This document shows positions 3,926-16,216 of a stretch of 17,848 bases of DNA, in pieces (within the stretch, counting starts at the first letter, position 1; each line of letters opens with the position of its first letter). The notes under the pieces are model-generated. The model was not told the origin of the DNA, did not search any database, and saw only the letters and a program-made list of their open reading frames with translations. The stretch covers positions 152,425 to 170,272 of the forward strand of contig JBAZKF010000002.1 in NCBI GenBank assembly GCA_041650895.1. The letters are read 5' to 3'. The DNA comes from Patescibacteria group bacterium. GTDB lineage: Bacteria; Patescibacteriota; Patescibacteriia; 2-01-FULL-39-33. The position numbers and the translations under genes were made by a program.

Positions 3926-4723
3926 ATGGAAGAACAAAAAACATGTTGTACAACTAATGGCATGCACAAATGCCATTGTGCCAAACATATCGTTTTAGCG
4001 ATTTTGGCTGTCGTTTTAATCGTTTATGTCGGCGTCCTAACGCGCAATGCCTGGCGCACTTATGATTATATCGGCAAGTCGCCGGATATGATTAATCAGA
4101 TTACTGTTACCGGCACAGCCAAGGTCAGCGTTACACCCGATATCGCCGTGCTTTATCTGGGCGTTATCAACGAGGGCGCGACGGTCAATCTGGCGCAAAA
4201 AGGCGTGACCGACAAAATGAATGCGATTATTGATTCGCTCAAGAAAGAGTTTAAAATTGACGCCAAAGATATCAAGACGGAAAATTATAGCGTTAATCCC
4301 AAGTATGATTGGACTGACGGCAGGCAACGGATAATCGGTTATTCCGCCAACCAAAGCGTTACTGTTAAAGTCAGGGATTTTGATAAGACCGGGGATATTC
4401 TGGCCAAGGCCACCGAACTCGGCGCTAACACAGTGTCCGGGCCGACTTTTTCTATTGATGATCCGGAAAAAGCCAAAGCCGAAGCGCGAGAAAAGGCCAT
4501 CGCCCAAGCCAAAGAAAAAGCAAGAATATTGGCTGATCAGGTCGGCATTAAATTGGGCCGGATTATTAATTTTTATGAAGGCGGAACAGAATTGCCGAAT
4601 GCAATCTATAGCCGTAGCGACCTGGCTGTCGGCGCCGGCGAGATGAAAGCGGCAGCTCCGACGATTGAACCGGGTAGTCAGGATGTTCAATTGACAGTCA
4701 GTATCAGCTATGAAATAAATTAG
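3926..4723 (+). CDS. SIMPL-domain (DUF541 / BP26-like) membrane-anchored protein with Cys/His-rich N-terminus
   Basis: N-terminal CCTTNGMHKCHCAKH, then one TM helix (IVLAILAVVLIVYVGVL), then the SIMPL-domain pattern (VTGTAKVSVTPD...YSANQSVTVKV...TVSISYEI). Confidence 0.7.
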   Translation: MEEQKTCCTTNGMHKCHCAKHIVLAILAVVLIVYVGVLTRNAWRTYDYIGKSPDMINQITVTGTAKVSVTPDIAVLYLGVINEGATVNLAQKGVTDKMNAIIDSLKKEFKIDAKDIKTENYSVNPKYDWTDGRQRIIGYSANQSVTVKVRDFDKTGDILAKATELGANTVSGPTFSIDDPEKAKAEAREKAIAQAKEKARILADQVGIKLGRIINFYEGGTELPNAIYSRSDLAVGAGEMKAAAPTIEPGSQDVQLTVSISYEIN

Positions 4724-4730
4724 TAATCTT

Positions 4731-5990
4731 ATGACAAAAATAAAGTCCGTTAAGGCGCGAGAAATTTTGGATTCGCGTGGCAATCCAACGGTAGAGGTTG
4801 AGGTGTGCTTGGATAATGGCAAAAAAGCTTGGGCTGGAGTGCCCTCCGGAGCCTCTACGGGCTCGCGTGAAGCCTTGGAACTTCGGGATGGCGATAAACG
4901 GCGATATGGTGGCCAAGGCGTACTTAAGGCCGTAAAAAATATCAACACGGTTATTGCGCCGAAGTTAATAGGATTGGATCCGGCCAAGCAGAAAGAAATT
5001 GACGAACTGATGCTTAAGTTGGACGGTACGGAAAATAAATCCAAGTTAGGCGCTAATGCTATTTTAGGAGTTTCTATGGCAGTGGCGCGTGTTGCGGCTT
5101 TTAGTCAGAACAAATCGCTTTACGTTTATCTTCACAAAAAATATTGGAACAGCAGTAGAATGTCTTTCCCGGTGCCAATGATGAATATTATGAATGGCGG
5201 CGCGCACGCCGGCTGGTCAATTGATATTCAGGAGTTCATGGTGATGCCGCAACAAAAGAATATTAAGGAAGCGATTCGTTGTGGTGCAGAGATTTTCCAT
5301 GTTCTTAAGAAACTTTTGGCTAAAGCCGGTTACCCAGTAACGGTTGGCGATGAAGGCGGTTATGCTCCCAAGCTGACCGGCAATGAAAAGGCCATGGGAT
5401 TGATTGTTTCTGCTATTAGGGGGAGTGGTTATAAACCGGGCCAAGACGTCAGGATAGCTATTGATTCGGCCGCCTCGGAGTTTTTTGATGATAAAGACAA
5501 ACATTATGACATGAAAGCCGATAAGAAAACCAGAACTTCAAAAGAGATGATCAAAATGTACGGCGAATGGATTAAGAAATATCCGATTGAGTCATTGGAA
5601 GACGGTTTGGCTGAAGGGGATTGGCAGGGTTGGGCGGATTTGACTCAGGCCTTGGGCAGGAGGGTTGCTTTGGTTGGCGATGATTTGTTTGTGACTAATT
5701 CCAAAATTCTTCAGGAAGGCATTAATAAGAAAGTGGCCAATGCCATTTTAATCAAATTAAATCAAATTGGCACCCTGACAGAAACAGTAGAGGCGATGAA
5801 ACTGGCGCAAAAAAATAATTATAAGCTGGCGGTCAGTCATAGGAGCGGTGAAACTCCTGATGATTTTATCGCCGATTTGGCCGTAGCTTCTGGCGCCGAG
5901 TACATTAAAACCGGATCGCTTAGCCGGGGTGAAAGAGTCGCTAAGTATAACCGTTTGATGGAAATCTGGGATGAGATGGGTAAAAAATAA
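4731..5990 (+). CDS. eno: enolase (phosphopyruvate hydratase)
   Basis: MTKIKSVKAREILDSRGNPTVEVEV..., SHRSGETEDxFIADLAV-type motif (SHRSGETPDDFIADLAV), 419 aa. Confidence 0.95.
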   Translation: MTKIKSVKAREILDSRGNPTVEVEVCLDNGKKAWAGVPSGASTGSREALELRDGDKRRYGGQGVLKAVKNINTVIAPKLIGLDPAKQKEIDELMLKLDGTENKSKLGANAILGVSMAVARVAAFSQNKSLYVYLHKKYWNSSRMSFPVPMMNIMNGGAHAGWSIDIQEFMVMPQQKNIKEAIRCGAEIFHVLKKLLAKAGYPVTVGDEGGYAPKLTGNEKAMGLIVSAIRGSGYKPGQDVRIAIDSAASEFFDDKDKHYDMKADKKTRTSKEMIKMYGEWIKKYPIESLEDGLAEGDWQGWADLTQALGRRVALVGDDLFVTNSKILQEGINKKVANAILIKLNQIGTLTETVEAMKLAQKNNYKLAVSHRSGETPDDFIADLAVASGAEYIKTGSLSRGERVAKYNRLMEIWDEMGKK

Positions 5991-6188: not shown

Positions 6189-7766
6189 ATGCCTGTAAAA
6201 TCTAAAAAATCACAAAAAACAGAAATCGCTAAAAAAGTTCTTTTGCTCATATTAGACGGTTGGGGAATCGGCAAAGAAGACGGTTCCAATCCGATTTTTT
6301 TAGCTAAACCGAAGTTTATCAATTCTTTGTATAAGAAGTATCCCTGGACGGAATTATGCGCGTCCGGACTTTGCGTCGGTTTGCCGCCAGACCAGGTGGG
6401 AAACTCTGAAGCCGGCCACATGAACTTGGGAGCCGGACGCATTGCCGATCAGGACGTGATTAAGATTTCCAAACACATCGGTACTGGCGAATTTTTCAAG
6501 AACCCCGCTTTTTTGGCGGCTATTAATCACGCCAAAAAGAATAAAACCGCTTTGCATTTGATGGGTATGCTGTCTAACGGCCAGAGTCCCCACAGCGATC
6601 CTGATCATCTTTTGGCTTTACTGACCTTAGTGCGCAAGCATGAGTTAAAAAAAGTTTATTTGCATTTATTTACCGATGGTCGCGATTCACCGCCTATGTC
6701 GGCCTTGAAATCCATCATGGCTTTGGAGCGTTCGCTTAAACCCAATGAGATCATCTCTACGGTTATCGGTCGGTTTTACGCCATGGATCGCAAGAAAGTC
6801 TGGACCAGGACTATCGCGGCTTACAACGCCATGACCGACGGCCGGGATGCGCATTATGCTGACAGTCCTCAGGCCGGCATCGACCGCGCTTACAATGCTA
6901 ATATATCCGATGAATTCATCGAGCCTATTGTCATTAGGCAAAAAGGAAAAATGACGCCGCGTATCAGCGATAATGACGCCATTATTTTCTTTAATTTGCG
7001 CAGCGATCGCGCCAGGCAAATGGCCAAGCCGTTTGTCCAGCATCAATTTGAAGAAAAGAATCCAGGGTTTGTTAAGCGTAAACGAGTATTGCGTAATGTT
7101 TCCTTTGTGGCTATGACTGATTTCGGACCGGATTTGGATAGTATTCTGACCGCTTATCCTTCGGAAGATTTAAAAAACACCTTGCCTATAGTGTTGAAGA
7201 ACAAGAAGCAGATTTATATCGCCGAGAGCGAGAAATACGCTCATGTGACTTTCTTTTTTAATGGTGGTTATGCTGATCCGGTGGGCGGTGAAGAAAGAAT
7301 TAATATTCCTTCGCCTCATGTGGATAGATACGACAAGACGCCGGCTATGTCCACCAAAGGAATAACCAGCAGAATTATTGCTTCATTAAGAAAATACGAT
7401 TTTATCTGCGCCAACATCGCTTGTCCTGATATGATCGGCCACACCGGCAATATGGAAGCGGCGCAAGAAACAGTTAAGGCTGTTGATAAATACGTCAAGC
7501 AAATCGTGGCGGCCGCGCTTAAGAATGATGCCGTGTTGCTCATCACTGCCGATCATGGCAATATAGAATACAAACTCAATTTGGAAACAGGGGAGAGGTT
7601 GACCGAACATACCACTAACCCAGTGCCATTTATTGTTGTAGGTGGCAGTTTCGGCAAGTCGCTAAAATTAAAGCGCGATGGCGTTTTGGGTGATGTCGCC
7701 CCTACTGTTATTAAACTGTTCGGTTTAAATAAACCCAAGGGAATGAGTAAGAATAGCTTGATTTAA
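6189..7766 (+). CDS. gpmI: 2,3-bisphosphoglycerate-independent phosphoglycerate mutase (iPGM), paralog 1 (more diverged)
   Basis: LILDGWG, GNSEAGHMNLGAG (active-site Ser retained), DGRD, GRFYAMDR, FNLRSDRAR, EKYAHVTFFFNGG, DMIGHTGN and ITADHGN motifs. The GGVHSH region is altered to GQSPHS. Confidence 0.9.
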   Translation: MPVKSKKSQKTEIAKKVLLLILDGWGIGKEDGSNPIFLAKPKFINSLYKKYPWTELCASGLCVGLPPDQVGNSEAGHMNLGAGRIADQDVIKISKHIGTGEFFKNPAFLAAINHAKKNKTALHLMGMLSNGQSPHSDPDHLLALLTLVRKHELKKVYLHLFTDGRDSPPMSALKSIMALERSLKPNEIISTVIGRFYAMDRKKVWTRTIAAYNAMTDGRDAHYADSPQAGIDRAYNANISDEFIEPIVIRQKGKMTPRISDNDAIIFFNLRSDRARQMAKPFVQHQFEEKNPGFVKRKRVLRNVSFVAMTDFGPDLDSILTAYPSEDLKNTLPIVLKNKKQIYIAESEKYAHVTFFFNGGYADPVGGEERINIPSPHVDRYDKTPAMSTKGITSRIIASLRKYDFICANIACPDMIGHTGNMEAAQETVKAVDKYVKQIVAAALKNDAVLLITADHGNIEYKLNLETGERLTEHTTNPVPFIVVGGSFGKSLKLKRDGVLGDVAPTVIKLFGLNKPKGMSKNSLI

Positions 7767-7769
7767 ATT

Positions 7770-9362
7770 ATGACTGATAGCAAAAACAAACGACTTAAAC
7801 CGGTAATACTGATGATTTTGGATGGTTGGGGAGCGGCCCCGCCTTCAAGATCCAATGCCATTACTCTGGCCAAAACGCCGGGGGTGACAGGATTAATAAA
7901 AACTTATCCGGCTTTGACTTTACAGGCCTCGGGCGAAGCCGTGGGCTTGTCTTGGGGGGAAATTGGCAACTCTGAAGTCGGGCATCTTAATTTGGGCTCG
8001 GGCAAGCTGGTTTACCAGAATTTGCCGCGCATTAATAAATCCATTTCTGACGGCGCCTTTTTTGAGAATGAAAAGTTTATCAATGCCATAAAACACGCTA
8101 AGAAAAACAAAGGCAAAGTTCATTTGCTGGGGTTGATTTCTTCGGGCGGCGTGCACAGCCATATTGATCATTTATTCGCTTTGTTGGAGCTGTGTCAGAA
8201 AGAAAAATTCCGCGAGGTATATATTCATGGCGTTTTGGACGGCCGTGACATGCCCTATAATTCCGGCATTGATTTTGTGGAAAAAATAAAAAACAAATCC
8301 GAGGAATTGGGTGTCGGCCGCATTGCCACTCTGTCCGGCCGGTTTTATGCTATGGATCGCGACAATCATTGGGAGCGCATCGTTCTGGCTTATAACGCCA
8401 TGGTCAAAGGTGAAGCCACGGAAAGATTCAGTGATCCGAGCGAGGCGGTCAGCGCTTCTTACGATAAAAAGATCTATGATGAGGAATTTGTGCCGGTAGT
8501 GATCGAAGATGGCGGCCGGCCTGTGGCCACCATCGCCCCCGGCGATGCCGTGATATTTTTTAATTTTCGCGCGGATCGCGCTCGAGAGATTTCCAAAGCG
8601 TTCGTTTTGCCCGGTTTTGAAAAGTTTGAACGGCAATATTTGAAAGATTTATATTTCGTGGCTATGACCGAATACGAGAAGGATGTCCCGATGGAAGTCG
8701 CTTTTCCTCCTGAAACCATTAAAGATCCGTTGGCTAAGGTTATAGCCGATGCCGGCCTAACTCAATTGCATATCGCGGAGACGGAGAAATACGCCCACGT
8801 CACTTTTTTCTTTAATGGCGGTACCGAGCAGGAATTTACCGGTGAAGACAGGGTGTTGGTGCCGTCGCCACGCGTGTCTTCTTATGCGGAGAAGCCGGAA
8901 ATGTCAGCCAAGGAAGTGACGCAGAAAACCATCGACGCTATTATGGCTGATAAGTATGATTTTATTGTGTTGAATTTTGCCAATTGTGATATGGTCGGCC
9001 ATACTGGAGACTTAAAAGCCACAATCAAAGCCGTGGAAGCAGTGGACAGTTGCGTCAAAAAAATCACAGAAGTGGTTTTGGCCAAAGGCGGAGCGGCCTT
9101 AATTACCGCTGATCATGGCAATGCCGAGGAGTTGCTCAATTTACAATCAGGCGAAATAGACAAGGAACACAGCACTTATCCGGTACCGCTTATTATCGTC
9201 GGCAAGGAATGGGAGGGTAAGAACGCCGGTTTTCCGGAAGTGCCTGGCGGTGATCTATCTTTGGTTCAGCCGGCTGGCATACTGTCCGATGTGGCACCGA
9301 CGATTATCAAGATTATGGGGCTCGAACAGCCGGCGGAAATGACCGGTAAACCGTTGATTTAA
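7770..9362 (+). CDS. gpmI: 2,3-bisphosphoglycerate-independent phosphoglycerate mutase (iPGM), paralog 2 (canonical)
   Basis: ILDGWG, GNSEVGHLNLGSG, SSGGVHSHIDHL, DGRD, GRFYAMDRD, FNFRADRARE, EKYAHVTFFFNGG, DMVGHTGD and ITADHGN. Starts 3 nt after paralog 1. Confidence 0.9.
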   Translation: MTDSKNKRLKPVILMILDGWGAAPPSRSNAITLAKTPGVTGLIKTYPALTLQASGEAVGLSWGEIGNSEVGHLNLGSGKLVYQNLPRINKSISDGAFFENEKFINAIKHAKKNKGKVHLLGLISSGGVHSHIDHLFALLELCQKEKFREVYIHGVLDGRDMPYNSGIDFVEKIKNKSEELGVGRIATLSGRFYAMDRDNHWERIVLAYNAMVKGEATERFSDPSEAVSASYDKKIYDEEFVPVVIEDGGRPVATIAPGDAVIFFNFRADRAREISKAFVLPGFEKFERQYLKDLYFVAMTEYEKDVPMEVAFPPETIKDPLAKVIADAGLTQLHIAETEKYAHVTFFFNGGTEQEFTGEDRVLVPSPRVSSYAEKPEMSAKEVTQKTIDAIMADKYDFIVLNFANCDMVGHTGDLKATIKAVEAVDSCVKKITEVVLAKGGAALITADHGNAEELLNLQSGEIDKEHSTYPVPLIIVGKEWEGKNAGFPEVPGGDLSLVQPAGILSDVAPTIIKIMGLEQPAEMTGKPLI

Positions 9363-13077: not shown

Positions 13078-13108
13078 AAATCGCTTATTTTGGGGCGATT
13101 TTTTTATT
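13078..13108 (+). terminator. Rho-independent terminator after the efflux operon
   Basis: Stem AAATCGC / GCGATTT with a 10-nt loop, followed by a run of 8 or more T. Confidence 0.5.
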
Positions 13109-13168
13109 TTATTTTGTCTAATTTTAGTCATTTATTTATAATTAAATCAAAAATAGGGGATAAAACAC

Positions 13169-13197
13169 TTGACAAAATATTTAAGGTGTGATATAAT
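13169..13197 (+). promoter_or_regulatory. near-consensus sigma70 promoter with extended -10 (TTGACA-17-TGaTATAAT)
   Basis: TTGACA at 13169-13174, a 17-nt spacer, TGATATAAT at 13189-13197. Predicted start site about 13204. It drives the GC-rich island. Confidence 0.65.
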
Positions 13198-13203
13198 AGT
13201 TTA

Positions 13204-13870
13204 TTCAAGATAGTGGTTGTGGATAACTGAACAAAATTCAATTATTGACAATATTATCTTGTGGCAGCTTAAAAGCTGTTTTAAGAGAACCTTCGGGTTC
13301 TTTGTCAGGGCGTCAGGCGGCTTATGTCGTGTGTCGCCCTTGACAAAGGTTCCGAATAATGGAACTCTGAATGTTAATTAAAAAAATATTCGCGGCAGCT
13401 TGTCGCCGCGTCGATATGATTAAGGCGTATGCTTGTCCGCCTAAATCCGATCCAAGGTCTAAAGCCGAGGATCTTAGGAGGAGATTAAGCTGAAGAGGGG
13501 GCCTGGCTTGAAATTATATATTCGCCAATCGCCTTAATTCACTTCTTCAAGTCTTGATTATATCGATGCGGTAGCAATGTCTGGCCGTCTAAGCAGGCGG
13601 GCAAACGCGCGCTGCAAGTACTTTCGAAGGAAGATTTTCCCCACCGCGTCGGGCTTTTATCCCGCCGGATCGGTAGACCTCCTCCTTTCCCCGGGGAGGC
13701 GTTATGTAGCGATACATGCGCCTCCCCCACACGCCTCAGACAGTATGGTTCGAGAGCATATAATCAAATCCTCACAAAGGAAGCTTGGTTTTACGCTTAC
13801 GGCCGGGGTACTGTTTGAGGCGTGTGTTGCAAAAAAGCATTTTTCATTTTACGTTACGAGTAATCTCGTG
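13204..13870 (+). ncRNA. candidate large structured non-coding RNA / structured 5' leader (class unknown), GC-rich
   Basis: No ORF with a plausible translation start. Many GC-rich helices are readable directly: GAACC-UUCG-GGUUC (UUCG tetraloop); CTTTGTCAGGGCG...CGCCCTTGACAAAG long-range helix; CGCGGC...GCCGCG; GGGGAGGCG-[AUGUA-GCGA-UACAU]-CGCCUCCCC (nested GNRA hairpin); CACACGCCTCA...TGAGGCGTGTG (an 11-bp helix enclosing about 65 nt). By eye the GC content is roughly 55-60%, against about 40-45% in the flanking genes. Confidence 0.4.
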
Positions 13871-13880
13871 AAGGAGGCCT

Positions 13881-14078
13881 ATGATAGTACAATGTTGCGT
13901 TTGTCGTAGGGTGCGTTTGTCTGGCGTGTCTGGCGTCTCTTGGGCGGAGCAAGCCATACCACCCGGTGAGGATGTTTCCCATGGCTACTGCCCGGAATGC
14001 GCCGCAAAAGCGTATGAGGGCATGGAGAGGGAATTGACCAACCGGCACCAAAGGAGCCCGACTGATGGCAAAGGGTAA
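13881..14078 (+). CDS. small 4-Cys zinc-ribbon protein (65 aa), paralog 1
   Basis: AAGGAGG sits 3-4 nt upstream of the ATG. Pattern CxxC-x12-W-x15-YCPEC-x4-AY. Low-complexity repeats occur in the N-terminal part, which lowers confidence. Confidence 0.45.
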   Translation: MIVQCCVCRRVRLSGVSGVSWAEQAIPPGEDVSHGYCPECAAKAYEGMERELTNRHQRSPTDGKG

Positions 14079-14253
14079 GTGCCCGGCTTGTTTTAAAATC
14101 GAAGTGGCGCCGGGGCAGTGGAAAAACACCGCCTTACCGGTCAAAGAAGAAACATTGCCCAAATACTGTCCGAGATGTAGCGAGCATAACGCTTATGTCC
14201 GGGAGAGCATTCGGGTATCCAAGGAGTTGGCGGGCGGCGCGTCGGGAAAATAG
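14065..14253 (+). CDS. small 4-Cys zinc-ribbon protein (62 aa), paralog 2, translationally coupled to paralog 1
   Basis: AAGGAG sits 8 nt upstream of the ATG. The start overlaps the end of paralog 1 (ATGGCAAAGGGTAA). Pattern CPAC-x9-W-x15-YCPRC-x4-AY has the same W-to-YCPxC spacing as paralog 1. Confidence 0.5.
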   Translation: MAKGKCPACFKIEVAPGQWKNTALPVKEETLPKYCPRCSEHNAYVRESIRVSKELAGGASGK

Positions 14254-14265
14254 AACATTCTGTTA

Positions 14266-14303
14266 GGAGGAAGCCGCGCGGCTTCCTCCTTTAAAATTGA
14301 TTT
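14266..14303 (+). terminator. strong GC-rich Rho-independent terminator ending the GC-rich island
   Basis: AGGAGGAAGCCGC|GCGGCTTCCTCCT is a perfect 13-nt inverted repeat (14266-14291), followed by TTTAAAATTGATTTTGATTT. Confidence 0.65.
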
Positions 14304-14412
14304 TGATTTATCCACAGCCAAGCTCTTGACACTGTATTGTTTTTATAAAAATTTAATATATAATTTTATATTAAGGGATGACATTAAGCATCAGGCATTT
14401 TCAATCGCACTT

Positions 14413-14450
14413 TCCTAAAAATTTTTTTAGGATCACACTCAAGTGTGATT
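14413..14450. repeat. two adjacent hairpins: AT-palindrome TCCTAAAAA-TT-TTTTTAGGA and ATCACAC-TCAA-GTGTGAT
   Basis: Read directly from the sequence. A GC terminator follows. Confidence 0.6.
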
Positions 14451-14476
14451 TCGAAAATTCCCGTTGCGTCTTCTCC

Positions 14477-14510
14477 GAGTCCCGCCCATGTGGCGGGACT
14501 TTTAATTGGC
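14477..14510 (+). terminator. Rho-independent terminator (GAGTCCCGCC-loop-GGCGGGACTT + TTTT)
   Basis: 8-10 bp GC stem 14477-14500 followed by TTTTAATTGG. Together with the two upstream hairpins this may define a short structured transcript. Confidence 0.55.
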
Positions 14511-15118: not shown

Positions 15119-15148
15119 TTGACTAAAACTTGTTAAATTGGTTATAAT
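15119..15148 (+). promoter_or_regulatory. sigma70-type promoter for pheS (TTGACT-17/18-TATAAT), near-leaderless transcript
   Basis: TTGACT at 15119-15124, TATAAT at 15143-15148, ATG at 15158, no SD. Confidence 0.6.
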
Positions 15149-15157
15149 ATATTCAAT

Positions 15158-16216
15158 ATGAAAGAAAAACTCAGCCAATTAAAGGCGCAATTCACCGAGG
15201 AATCGGCAAAGGTCAAATCAGCTTCCGAGCTGGAAGAATTGGAGAATAGATTTTTGAGCCGTAAAAGTGGATTGCTGACCGGCATCATGAAGGGGATCAA
15301 AGATGTGGCTAAAGAAGAGGTGGCGGAAATCGGCGCCTTGGCTAATGAAACCAAAGATTATATTGTTGAGGGACTGGAAACACTTAAGGGAAACTTGGGC
15401 GGTATCGGTTCCTCTAATTTCGATTTTACCGTACCCGGCCGCAAGCCGGCTGTCGGCCATTTGCATTTAGCCACCATTGCCATTCGCGAGATTGAAAGTA
15501 TCCTAGAGCCGTTAGGCTTCGTCAGGACGCGCCATCCGGATGTAGAATGGGATTATTATGCTTTTGAAACTTTGAACATGCCCGGCGATCATCCGGCTCG
15601 CGATGACTGGGAAACCTTTTTTATTGATGATTCTCCGATCAAGATGAATTTGCCGGCTAATTCAAAGAAATTAGTCAAAGAGGGGAGACGATTACTAACT
15701 CCTCATACTTCTAGCATTCAGGTACGGGAAATGGAGAGGGGCGTTCTGCCGATTCGGATGATGAATATTTCCAAATGCTATCGTCGGCAGATTGATGTTT
15801 CTCATGTGCCGATGTTCCATCAATTTGAGGGGCTAGTGATTGACAAGGGGATTAATATTACTCACTTGAAGGGCACGATTGATTATTTTGTTAAGAAATT
15901 TTTCGGCGAGGATCGCACAATTCGTTTGCGGCCGCATCATTTTCAATTCACTGAGCCGAGTTTTGAAGTGGATATTTCCTGCGGACTCTGCCATGGCGCA
16001 GGTTGCAAGATGTGTAAAGAGGGTTGGTTGGAGCTGGCTGGCGCCGGCATGGTTCATCCAAATGTGCTTAAAGCCGGCGGCATTGATCCGGAGAAGTATT
16101 CGGGTTTTGCTTTCGGCTGGGGTGTCGAGCGATGCTATTCCATGAAGTCGGACCTGAATATTGATGATTTAAGGTTGATGTATAAGAATGATTTGAGGTT
16201 TAATGAGCAGTTTTAG
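15158..16216 (+). CDS. pheS: phenylalanine--tRNA ligase alpha subunit
   Basis: Class II aaRS motifs: PHHFQFTEPSFEVD, the Cys cluster ISCGLCHGAGCKMCKEGW (as in Bacillus PheS), GWLELAGAGMVHPNVL, SGFAFGWGVERCYSM, DLRLMYKNDLRF. No pheT follows within the window. Confidence 0.95.
   Translation: MKEKLSQLKAQFTEESAKVKSASELEELENRFLSRKSGLLTGIMKGIKDVAKEEVAEIGALANETKDYIVEGLETLKGNLGGIGSSNFDFTVPGRKPAVGHLHLATIAIREIESILEPLGFVRTRHPDVEWDYYAFETLNMPGDHPARDDWETFFIDDSPIKMNLPANSKKLVKEGRRLLTPHTSSIQVREMERGVLPIRMMNISKCYRRQIDVSHVPMFHQFEGLVIDKGINITHLKGTIDYFVKKFFGEDRTIRLRPHHFQFTEPSFEVDISCGLCHGAGCKMCKEGWLELAGAGMVHPNVLKAGGIDPEKYSGFAFGWGVERCYSMKSDLNIDDLRLMYKNDLRFNEQF

Follow-up and report, generated by a model that had tools for sequence, protein, structure and literature searches.

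Two short, overlapping open reading frames (ORFs) in the window, the 17,848-nt stretch of DNA analyzed here from a groundwater bacterium of the candidate phyla radiation (CPR), are each preceded by a strong Shine-Dalgarno (SD) site. The organism is Buchananbacteria-like, and its genome was assembled from a metagenome. ORF1 (13881-14078) encodes a zinc-ribbon protein of 65 aa (MIVQCCVC...W...VSHGYCPEC, then a C-terminal helix), and ORF2 (14065-14253) encodes a 62-aa protein with the layout CxxC...W...YCPxC; these and the other window features described below lie on the + strand unless stated otherwise. We put the probability at roughly 55% that the GGAG motifs before ORF1 and ORF2 are genuine SD sites maintained by selection and that they stand on one conserved transcription unit with a leader that probably gates translation.

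The window contains 19 substantial ORFs, all on the + strand. For each, the 20 nt upstream of the start codon (-22 to -3) were scored for duplex energy against a generic 16S tail (CACCUCCUUU), which may not be the host's own. SD1 (GAAGGAGG, 13870-13877) scored -12.1 kcal/mol and lies 3 nt 5' of the ORF1 AUG, and SD2 (AAAGGAG, 14050-14056) scored -8.1 kcal/mol and lies 8 nt 5' of the ORF2 AUG, inside the poorly conserved 3' end of ORF1. For the remaining 17 ORFs, the scores lay between +2.1 and -4.8 kcal/mol, and the A+T content of these 20 nt was 55 to 95%. A preliminary description of this DNA had stated that the only strong SD sites in the window precede the two mini-ORFs and that the ATGs of the larger genes follow AT-rich sequence, and both statements hold. 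It had counted 15 larger genes without an SD; none of the larger ORFs is SD led, and they number 17. Scores of -8 kcal/mol or better occur in 5.5% of all 20-nt windows on the + strand and scores of -12 kcal/mol or better in 0.4%, and 22 of 319 ATGs reach -8 kcal/mol. Against these low background rates, an SD before both mini-ORFs and before 0/17 of the other ORFs is not attributable to chance. The two starts also differ from the rest in folding: the minimum free energy (MFE) of the start region (-30 to +30) was -18.6 kcal/mol for ORF1 and -13.9 kcal/mol for ORF2, compared with a mean of -3.4 ± 2.1 kcal/mol for the 16 other ORFs scored (the ORF at the 5' edge, which has no upstream sequence, was excluded).

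Four lineages carry the unit: the window itself; L002, a Candidatus Buchananbacteria genome and the nearest syntenic relative of the window; L006, which is identical to L048; and L047, a 1.1-kb JGI contig that represents the most divergent lineage and has a different upstream context. L006 and L047 were found by a genome scan for the ORF1 family combined with a metagenome scan for a 21-mer of the leader (CCTCAGACAGTATGGTTCGRG). The latter matched three contigs and added only one new lineage (L047), which is why covariation statistics are thin. A further locus from an ENA assembly (L056) is identical to the window over their overlap and runs 10 kb beyond its 3' end. Both SDs are present in all four lineages, with energies of -9.3 to -12.6 kcal/mol for SD1 and -6.6 to -12.2 kcal/mol for SD2. 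SD1 lies 3 nt from the AUG in the window and 4, 8, and 7 nt from it in the relatives, and SD2 is spaced by 7 to 8 nt. GGAG-type motifs stand 3 to 9 nt from the start codons in every unit lineage, with diverged flanks; in L047, GGAGG is retained although some 30 nt around it have diverged. For 10 flanking genes compared between the window and L002, the synonymous divergence (dS) is 0.8 to 1.8 and the third-position identity is 52 to 70%, so that neutral sites are saturated, and conservation of the SDs in 4/4 lineages at such distances exceeds the neutral expectation. The core of SD2, GGAG or GGGGA, is kept in all four lineages while the amino acids of the overlapping ORF1 tail change, which argues for selection on the nucleotide motif itself.

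ORF1 and ORF2 are genes, judging from their pattern of change. Relative to L002, indels in both ORFs are multiples of 3 only, which is not so for indels in the leader; the ratios of nonsynonymous to synonymous substitution rates (dN/dS) are 0.29 for ORF1 and 0.54 for ORF2, and the Cys and His ligand residues of the CxxC and HGYCPxC motifs are invariant. Identity to L002 is 74% (nucleotide) and 68% (amino acid) for ORF1 and 61% and 49%, respectively, for ORF2. The start of ORF2 overlaps the end of ORF1 by 14 nt in the window and by 8 to 23 nt in the relatives. NCBI annotates ORF1 (WC473_05615, "Patescibacteria group bacterium") and likewise ORF2.

Upstream of ORF1 lies a 677-nt 5' leader (13204-13880) that is structured and contains no credible ORF. 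It is conserved more than the two ORFs downstream of it, the main feature of the locus and one that the preliminary description had missed. Its identity to L002 is 85% overall, 91% over 13391-13585, and 89% over 13731-13870. The leader is preceded by the best promoter in the window (13169-13197), which matches the consensus at 12/12 positions (TTGACA, a 17-nt spacer, and TATAAT, with an extended TG) and places the transcription start at about 13204. Over the promoter block (13161-13199), the window and L002 are 100% identical; the promoter core, which starts with the -35 hexamer and stops shortly after the -10 hexamer (13168-13200), does not vary among the four lineages. An intrinsic terminator at 13078-13101, a 9-bp stem followed by a T-run, closes the upstream HlyD-ABC-MacB operon and divides it from the transcript of this island. 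The presumed end of the transcript is a GC-rich hairpin at 14266-14291 (AGGAGGAAGCC/GGCUUCCUCCU followed by UUUAAAAUU), which is conserved in L002 and L006; its U-tract is weak, and it was not flagged by a terminator scan. The architecture is the same in all four lineages: promoter core, ORF-free leader with large hairpins, SD-led ORF1, and overlapping SD-led ORF2. The leader measures 677 nt in the window, 691 nt in L002, 951 nt in L006, and 705 nt in L047. The island had been called GC rich; its GC content does exceed that of the window (43%), but the excess is modest, with 47% for the leader and 53 to 56% for the ORFs. The GC content at third codon positions (GC3) of ORF1 and ORF2, 0.58 to 0.62, is at the top end of the normal range (0.18 to 0.59).

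The leader is strongly folded, with an MFE of -291.4 kcal/mol (z = -13.7). The opposite strand reaches only -241 kcal/mol; the + strand fold is better by about 50 kcal/mol, a difference that G-U pairing in an RNA would produce and that places the RNA on the + strand. In the RNAalifold analysis of the leader, compensatory changes affected approximately 10 pairs, and few pairs were broken. The first large element is a 5' hairpin domain (13284-13366, UUUGUCAGGGCG...CGCCCUUGACAAAG) whose helix is kept in five sequences with compensatory changes. The fifth is L054, a more distant member of the Buchananbacteria in which the promoter and this domain recur (nhmmer E = 7e-8); the L054 leader has a similar promoter, is otherwise different, is 1.2 kb long, and ends in SD-led small ORFs, including an ORF1 homolog. 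Next comes a long irregular hairpin of about 195 nt (13391-13585), the best-conserved part of the leader, in which 5 of the 68 predicted pairs show compensatory changes. Between these two elements, L006 (and identically L048) carries an insertion of about 300 nt (L006 4200-4500) that is absent from the window, L002, and L047. A hairpin at 13693-13727 (GGGGAGGCG/CGCCUCCCC) uses GGAGG and CCUCC motifs structurally. It is followed by a hairpin of about 100 nt (13728-13826) with an invariant 18-bp base (CACACGCCUCAGACAGUA/UACUGUUUGAGGCGUGUG), whose pairs, including G-U pairs possible only on the + strand, are kept in 4/4 sequences. A promoter-like site with a 10/12 match (13737-13764) falls inside this invariant helix. 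At the gathering threshold, Rfam 15 gave no match in the window or in seven related loci, its models including OLE, ROOL, GOLLD, raiA, HEARO, RNase P, tmRNA, 6S, riboswitches, and leaders. A permissive E-value search of the window returned only unrelated snoRNA and sRNA models, the best at a sub-threshold E of 0.2 to 0.4, and ARAGORN was negative.

The same leader may control access to SD1. A CU-rich tract (CCUCCUCC, 13678-13685, continuing into UUUCC) is a candidate anti-SD that would mask this site, and in each of the four lineages it directly precedes the GGGGAGGCG hairpin. The MFE structure of the window pairs AGGAGG (13872-13877) with CCUCCU (13678-13683). RNAalifold places SD1 and the AUG inside a long-range helix, and in a three-sequence consensus fold the segment adjoining the tract (AUCGGUAG, 13669-13676) pairs through AUCG-UAG with the start-codon region of ORF1. 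In partition functions computed for the full leader, the ensemble probability of pairing between SD1 and the tract was about 0.58 for the window, 1.0 for L006, and 0.9 for L047. SD2 was predicted to be unpaired. The proposal that the tract, earlier placed at 13679-13686 and thus one nucleotide off, could sequester both SDs is therefore supported by the predicted folds for SD1 in three of the four lineages, but not for SD1 in L002 or for SD2. A comparable masking of the UCCUUU type is predicted at a further Buchananbacteria homolog (L050), where the 5' untranslated region (5'UTR) is only 80 nt long and AGGAGCA pairs with UGUUCCU 50 nt upstream (P of about 1.0). We regard masking of SD1 by the CU-rich tract as a plausible, well-motivated prediction rather than a proven interaction. 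The segment spanning the tract, GGAUCGGUAGACCUCCUCCUUUC (13669-13689), loosely resembles the bacterial 16S 3' terminus (GGAUCACCUCCUUUC), a likeness that may simply reflect its complementarity to an SD and AUG.

SDs are rare beyond the window too, but those of the mini-ORFs are not unique in the genome: in the extension provided by L056, 1 of 13 further genes is SD led. The SD-led gene, which encodes 179 aa, lies about 4 kb past the 3' end of the window (L056 14046-14636; L002 ortholog, 17871-18410) and is the only other SD-led gene among some 37 genes of the source genome. A promoter of its own precedes the gene, the 5'UTR measures 50 nt, and AAAGGAG stands 8 nt from the ATG; the SD is kept in the L002 ortholog, and the protein has no match in Pfam or NCBIfam. 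In other Buchananbacteria, genes for HSP20 (L050 79-504), FeoA (L054 10512-10754), and a CDP-alcohol phosphatidyltransferase (Pfam CDP-OH_P_transf; L050 13098-13772 and L051 13208-13852) are SD led, while most of their neighbors are not. HSP20, FeoA, and the 179-aa gene count among the few leadered genes, and their SDs are textbook motifs in A/U-rich, unstructured contexts. The strong SDs on HSP20, FeoA, and the phosphatidyltransferase hint at a small SD-dependent gene set. When the CPR loci were pooled, 14 of 16 genes in ORF1-family operons reached -7 kcal/mol or better, compared with 10 of 113 other genes (Fisher P = 1e-10, the genes not being phylogenetically independent); the rate among the other genes is close to the background of 7.8%.

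Many first cistrons in the window, L002, L050, L051, and L054 begin with the arrangement TATAAT, 9 nt, ATG. At the PheS start (15119-15160), for example, TATAAT occupies 15143-15148 and the ATG is at 15158. Since these -10 hexamers stand about 9 nt from the ATGs, they suggest that leaderless mRNAs are the norm in this lineage. SDs are rare yet used, and they go with leadered or structured mRNAs. From their use on leadered genes we infer, indirectly, that the ribosome keeps a functional anti-SD. No rRNA gene was found by Rfam in the window or in the seven related loci. Buchananbacteria belong to the ABY1 or "Parcubacteria 1" branch and presumably lie outside the branch that lacks uL1 and the anti-SD.

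Taken together, the explanation that we favor is as follows. Default initiation in this lineage would need no SD, first cistrons being mostly leaderless and internal cistrons having A/U-rich, unstructured starts. The mini-ORFs lie 0.7 kb deep in a GC-richer, tightly folded RNA, where neither default mode should be usable; the 30S subunit would therefore be recruited by SD/anti-SD pairing, as on the few other leadered genes. The CU-rich tract and its flank (13669-13685) probably mask SD1 and the ORF1 start codon, making the leader a translational gate. Candidate signals for the gate are temperature, stress, a metal, and the zinc-ribbon proteins themselves. Translation of ORF2 would follow by coupling and through its own exposed SD.

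Several points weigh against this explanation. The spacing of the SDs had been described as proper, which is true of SD2 (8 nt); the 3 nt between SD1 and its AUG in the window are at the short limit of the usual range of about 4 to 12 nt. The structure of the leader rests on thermodynamics and on the approximately 10 compensatory pairs, drawn from four close lineages and one partial homolog. In the L002 ensemble, a local alternative beats the helix between SD1 and the CU-rich tract. No pair in that helix changed on both sides among the four lineages, its strands being nearly invariant. In a duplex test, noncognate and shuffled CU-rich segments paired with the SD about as well as the cognate segment did; the test could not tell them apart, since GGAGG will pair with any CU-rich segment. 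Finally, Tsurumaki et al. (2022, PMC9297842) detected the CCUCCU motif in just 48% of the 16S sequences from Parcubacteria. Of the options in the preliminary description, regulated or otherwise special translation with a sequestering CCUCC tract is nonetheless the best supported, weakened as it is by the L002 fold, in which SD1 is not paired with the tract.

The emphasis could also be placed on the RNA. The leader may be mainly an autonomous large noncoding RNA, with the zinc-ribbon proteins as partners in a ribonucleoprotein (RNP) or as autoregulators, in the manner of OLE and its oap genes, and with the SDs serving cistrons carried on the 3' end of the RNA. This is a possibility of some substance, although we think it the lesser one, and it is compatible with the gating explanation. 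The nucleotide identity of the leader (85 to 91%) compared with the amino acid identity of the ORFs (68 and 49%), its extreme fold, its size of about 0.7 to 0.95 kb, and its invariant helices all favor it, as do the recurrence of the 5' domain upstream of the L054 ORF1 homolog and the restriction of ORF2 to loci with the leader RNA. Yet this RNA does not accompany the ORF1 homologs of other phyla or those of L050, L051, and L017, nothing between the RNA and the ORFs looks like a terminator or a processing site, and RNA binding by the proteins is supposed, the AlphaFold model of ORF1 having no significant structural neighbor. A further alternative is that the GGAGG motifs are purely RNA structural, with CCUCC partners, in a cell whose ribosomes are blind to SDs through loss of the anti-SD, as reported for part of the Parcubacteria (PMC9297842), or through its occlusion, as in Bacteroidia. 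Three other GGAGG motifs of the island (13477, 13695, and 14266) do plainly sit in local hairpins opposite CCUCC, a structural role that the preliminary description had raised as an alternative for the GGAGG elements; CCUCC is enriched about 15-fold in the island (4 copies in 1.1 kb versus 4 in 16.7 kb); and SD1 is itself predicted to be paired. SD2, in contrast, has no predicted partner, the motifs keep their distance of 3 to 9 nt from the starts in every lineage despite diverged flanks, some family members with short leaders are SD led, and the SDs of HSP20, FeoA, and the 179-aa gene occur in unstructured contexts. We consider a solely structural role quite improbable.

Only slightly better placed, and still unlikely, is the view that the SDs are a passive, functionless legacy of horizontal acquisition from an SD-using donor, an origin proposed for the island in the preliminary description. 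Among the GTDB species representatives, most ORF1 homologs belong to Hydrogenedentota, Nitrospirota, and Desulfobacterota, and no more than three CPR species have one; the SD-led homologs of L017, a member of the Parcubacteria, stand in an unrelated context; and the ORFs are slightly GC richer than their neighbors. A deeper protein search added three more Buchananbacteria with ORF1 homologs, and an ancient transfer of ORF1 into the CPR is plausible. Such a transfer does not explain the SDs, because they survived saturated divergence (dS of 0.8 to 1.8) in four lineages, GC3 is not foreign but within the host range, and the conserved promoter and leader are CPR specific, the leader having no counterpart outside these CPR genomes. 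The SDs also occur in further Buchananbacteria operons, the SD2 core persists while the ORF1 tail residues change, and native leadered genes bear SDs as well. That the mini-ORFs might not be genes at all, their SD-like motifs arising by chance in a purine-rich stretch, is very hard to credit. The gene calls of the ENA assembly (L056) are blank between MacB and the 125-aa gene downstream, and ORF2 has no relatives outside the island. Those calls come from one gene caller, and opposed to them are the in-frame indels, the dN/dS values below 1, the conserved CxxC and HGYCPxC ligands, the NCBI annotation of both ORFs, and the breadth of the ORF1 family described below.

A protein search returned ORF1 homologs at 49 to 64% identity, and a profile of the family matched 2,197 cluster representatives at E ≤ 1e-3, nearly all of them stand-alone proteins of about 60 aa. 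ORF1 itself scored 7.6e-30, and the next-best listed matches scored 1e-20 to 1e-11. A few members form C-terminal modules of PAS proteins (e.g., P0148), and a few are labeled YlaI-like by JGI. The family layout is M-x-x-Q-C-C-x-C at the N terminus, a central W, S-H-G-Y-C-P-x-C, and a C-terminal helix (MIVQCCVCKKVR..W..VSHGYCPxCA). ORF1 fits it, having every invariant residue (C5, C6, C8, W21, S33, H34, Y36, C37, P38, and C40) and a length typical of the family; unlike the unit in the window, members in other phyla have neither the long leader nor an ORF2 partner. Neither ORF1 nor ORF2 matched a Pfam or NCBIfam model, and a PDB sequence search with ORF1 was uninformative. AlphaFold2 predicted ORF1 to be a beta-hairpin zinc ribbon with four short strands and a helix at residues 38-57 (predicted local distance difference test score, 81), and a Foldseek search of this model against the PDB gave no significant neighbor. 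A ribosomal-protein identity was considered for both ORFs and rejected: there was no ribosomal match in Pfam or NCBIfam, and the one ribosomal-protein chain listed by Foldseek from the PDB, 5afi_6 (E = 8.5; probability, 0.03), is noise. In an hhalign comparison with the profile of the ORF1 family, ORF2, found only in the leader-bearing island, aligned over 36 columns (probability, 78%; E = 1.9e-5); it lacks the SHG motif. Because it aligns with the same CxxC...W...YCPxC layout, ORF2 is probably a diverged tandem paralog of ORF1.

The genomic neighborhoods of the family said little about its function. In a Pfam census of 113 neighbors of ORF1 homologs, ABC-2 transporters stood beside 9 to 13 loci, and some PAS and two-component genes were present. 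The homologs in Buchananbacteria adjoin CorA or FeoA metal transport genes, no more than a hint that ORF1 is linked to metals. In L017 (ARS52; 4426-5186), an ORF1 homolog directly follows a receiver-like protein that ends in a similar module, CxxC...W...CCPVC; both genes are SD led (-11.8 and -10.0 kcal/mol), and there is no leader.

The unit belongs to none of the systems that we regard as its closest precedents. In Flavobacterium johnsoniae and other Bacteroidia, rpsU, which encodes bS21, is SD led; bS21, bS18, and bS6 occlude the anti-SD, and it is ribosomes without bS21 that read the SD (PMC7797042, PMC9976891, PMC13000453). The resemblance lies in an SD-independent default on A/U-rich starts and in the very few genes that keep a strong, conserved SD under a special translational regime. 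Here, by contrast, the SD-led genes encode zinc-ribbon mini-proteins rather than bS21 or another platform ribosomal protein, and many neighbors appear to be leaderless; bS21 is often absent in Parcubacteria (PMC9297842). RNA thermometers (ROSE and fourU) and translational riboswitch platforms share with the leader an upstream pyrimidine-rich tract predicted to pair with the SD and AUG, and the short 5'UTR of L050 resembles a classic single-hairpin SD mask. However, the leaders of the unit are 677 to 951 nt long, the masking strands in the window are separated by about 195 nt, a stretch that includes two large conserved hairpins, and this leader matches no known aptamer or thermometer family, its gating being a prediction. 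Like OLE RNA with oapA (PMC12054373), the leader is an RNA of about 0.6 to 0.9 kb that is strongly folded, lineage restricted, directly upstream of small protein genes in one unit, and more conserved than those genes. Unlike OLE, it is known from only four or five lineages, its partner proteins are unrelated, an RNP is supposed, and it has no Rfam 15 match to OLE, ROOL, GOLLD, raiA, or HEARO.

Translation of leaderless mRNAs is common in Actinobacteria, Deinococcus, and archaea. It would fit the first cistrons neighboring the unit, as judged here from promoter-like hexamers alone, and it does not fit the mini-ORFs.

The island is bracketed by two perfect DnaA-box 9-mers (TTATCCACA), the only two in the window, where about 0.14 would be expected by chance. 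One (13218-13226, - strand) lies at about +15 of the transcript and forms the 5' arm of its first hairpin; the box itself is unchanged across the four lineages, the sequence that it pairs with is not, and a DnaA-box-like sequence (GGTTGTGGATAAC) at about +10 to +22 is common to the four. The other (14308-14316, + strand) stands upstream of a candidate small RNA (sRNA) promoter. Both boxes are invariant among the lineages that carry them, and together they form an imperfect inverted repeat, GG(T/C)TGTGGATAA. The boxes may serve DnaA-dependent promoter control. A chromosomal origin was considered and rejected, there being only two boxes, a cumulative GC skew that rises over most of the window without a sign switch at the island, and genes cooriented on the + strand. 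The candidate sRNA gene (14359-14505) is an ORF-free segment of about 140 nt between the island and the gene for the 125-aa membrane protein. It follows a TATAAT (14359-14364) and folds into a single long hairpin, and a clean intrinsic terminator (14479-14503) closes it; it is 91% identical to L002 and 93% identical to L006 and has no Rfam match.

Elsewhere, the window encodes NiFe-hydrogenase subunits, PGK, enolase, the HlyD-ABC-MacB exporter, and PheS, among others. Two tandem paralogs of cofactor-independent phosphoglycerate mutase (iPGM) occupy 6189-7766 and 7770-9362, and the pair is kept in L002. The segment 16200-17848 is an AT-rich tail (25 to 33% GC) with a 100-aa ORF, a transglutaminase-like gene, and a 141-aa ORF; the corresponding place in L002 holds Mrr and GIY-YIG genes, so that this segment is variable between relatives.

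To our knowledge, translation initiation in the CPR (Patescibacteria) is almost unstudied experimentally, and this locus offers a compact system for testing how SD-dependent and SD-independent initiation coexist in one small genome, its SD-led genes lying downstream of a conserved leader that is predicted to mask an SD. The most worthwhile part of the finding is a strongly conserved, structured RNA of about 0.7 kb that matches no Rfam family and is unannotated. The locus also brings to notice a widespread family of zinc-ribbon mini-proteins for which there is no Pfam or NCBIfam model. On a wider and decidedly tentative reading, which we would not expect to hold in full, the RNA of approximately 0.7 to 0.95 kb would represent a kind of large structured RNA that has not been described before and is confined to Buchananbacteria-like CPR bacteria. 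Acting as a sensor or as a scaffold, it would gate the SD-dependent translation of the two zinc-ribbon mini-proteins encoded on it, to which it might also bind. SD initiation would then be kept for a small conditional regulon made up of HSP20, FeoA, the 179-aa gene, and the ORF1-family operons, and would parallel, in the CPR, the specialized SD reading of Bacteroidia. If the gating model is true, the unit would be a portable reporter for the signals that these uncultured bacteria perceive; should the RNA be the scaffold of an RNP, a member from the CPR would join the short list of large bacterial noncoding RNAs.

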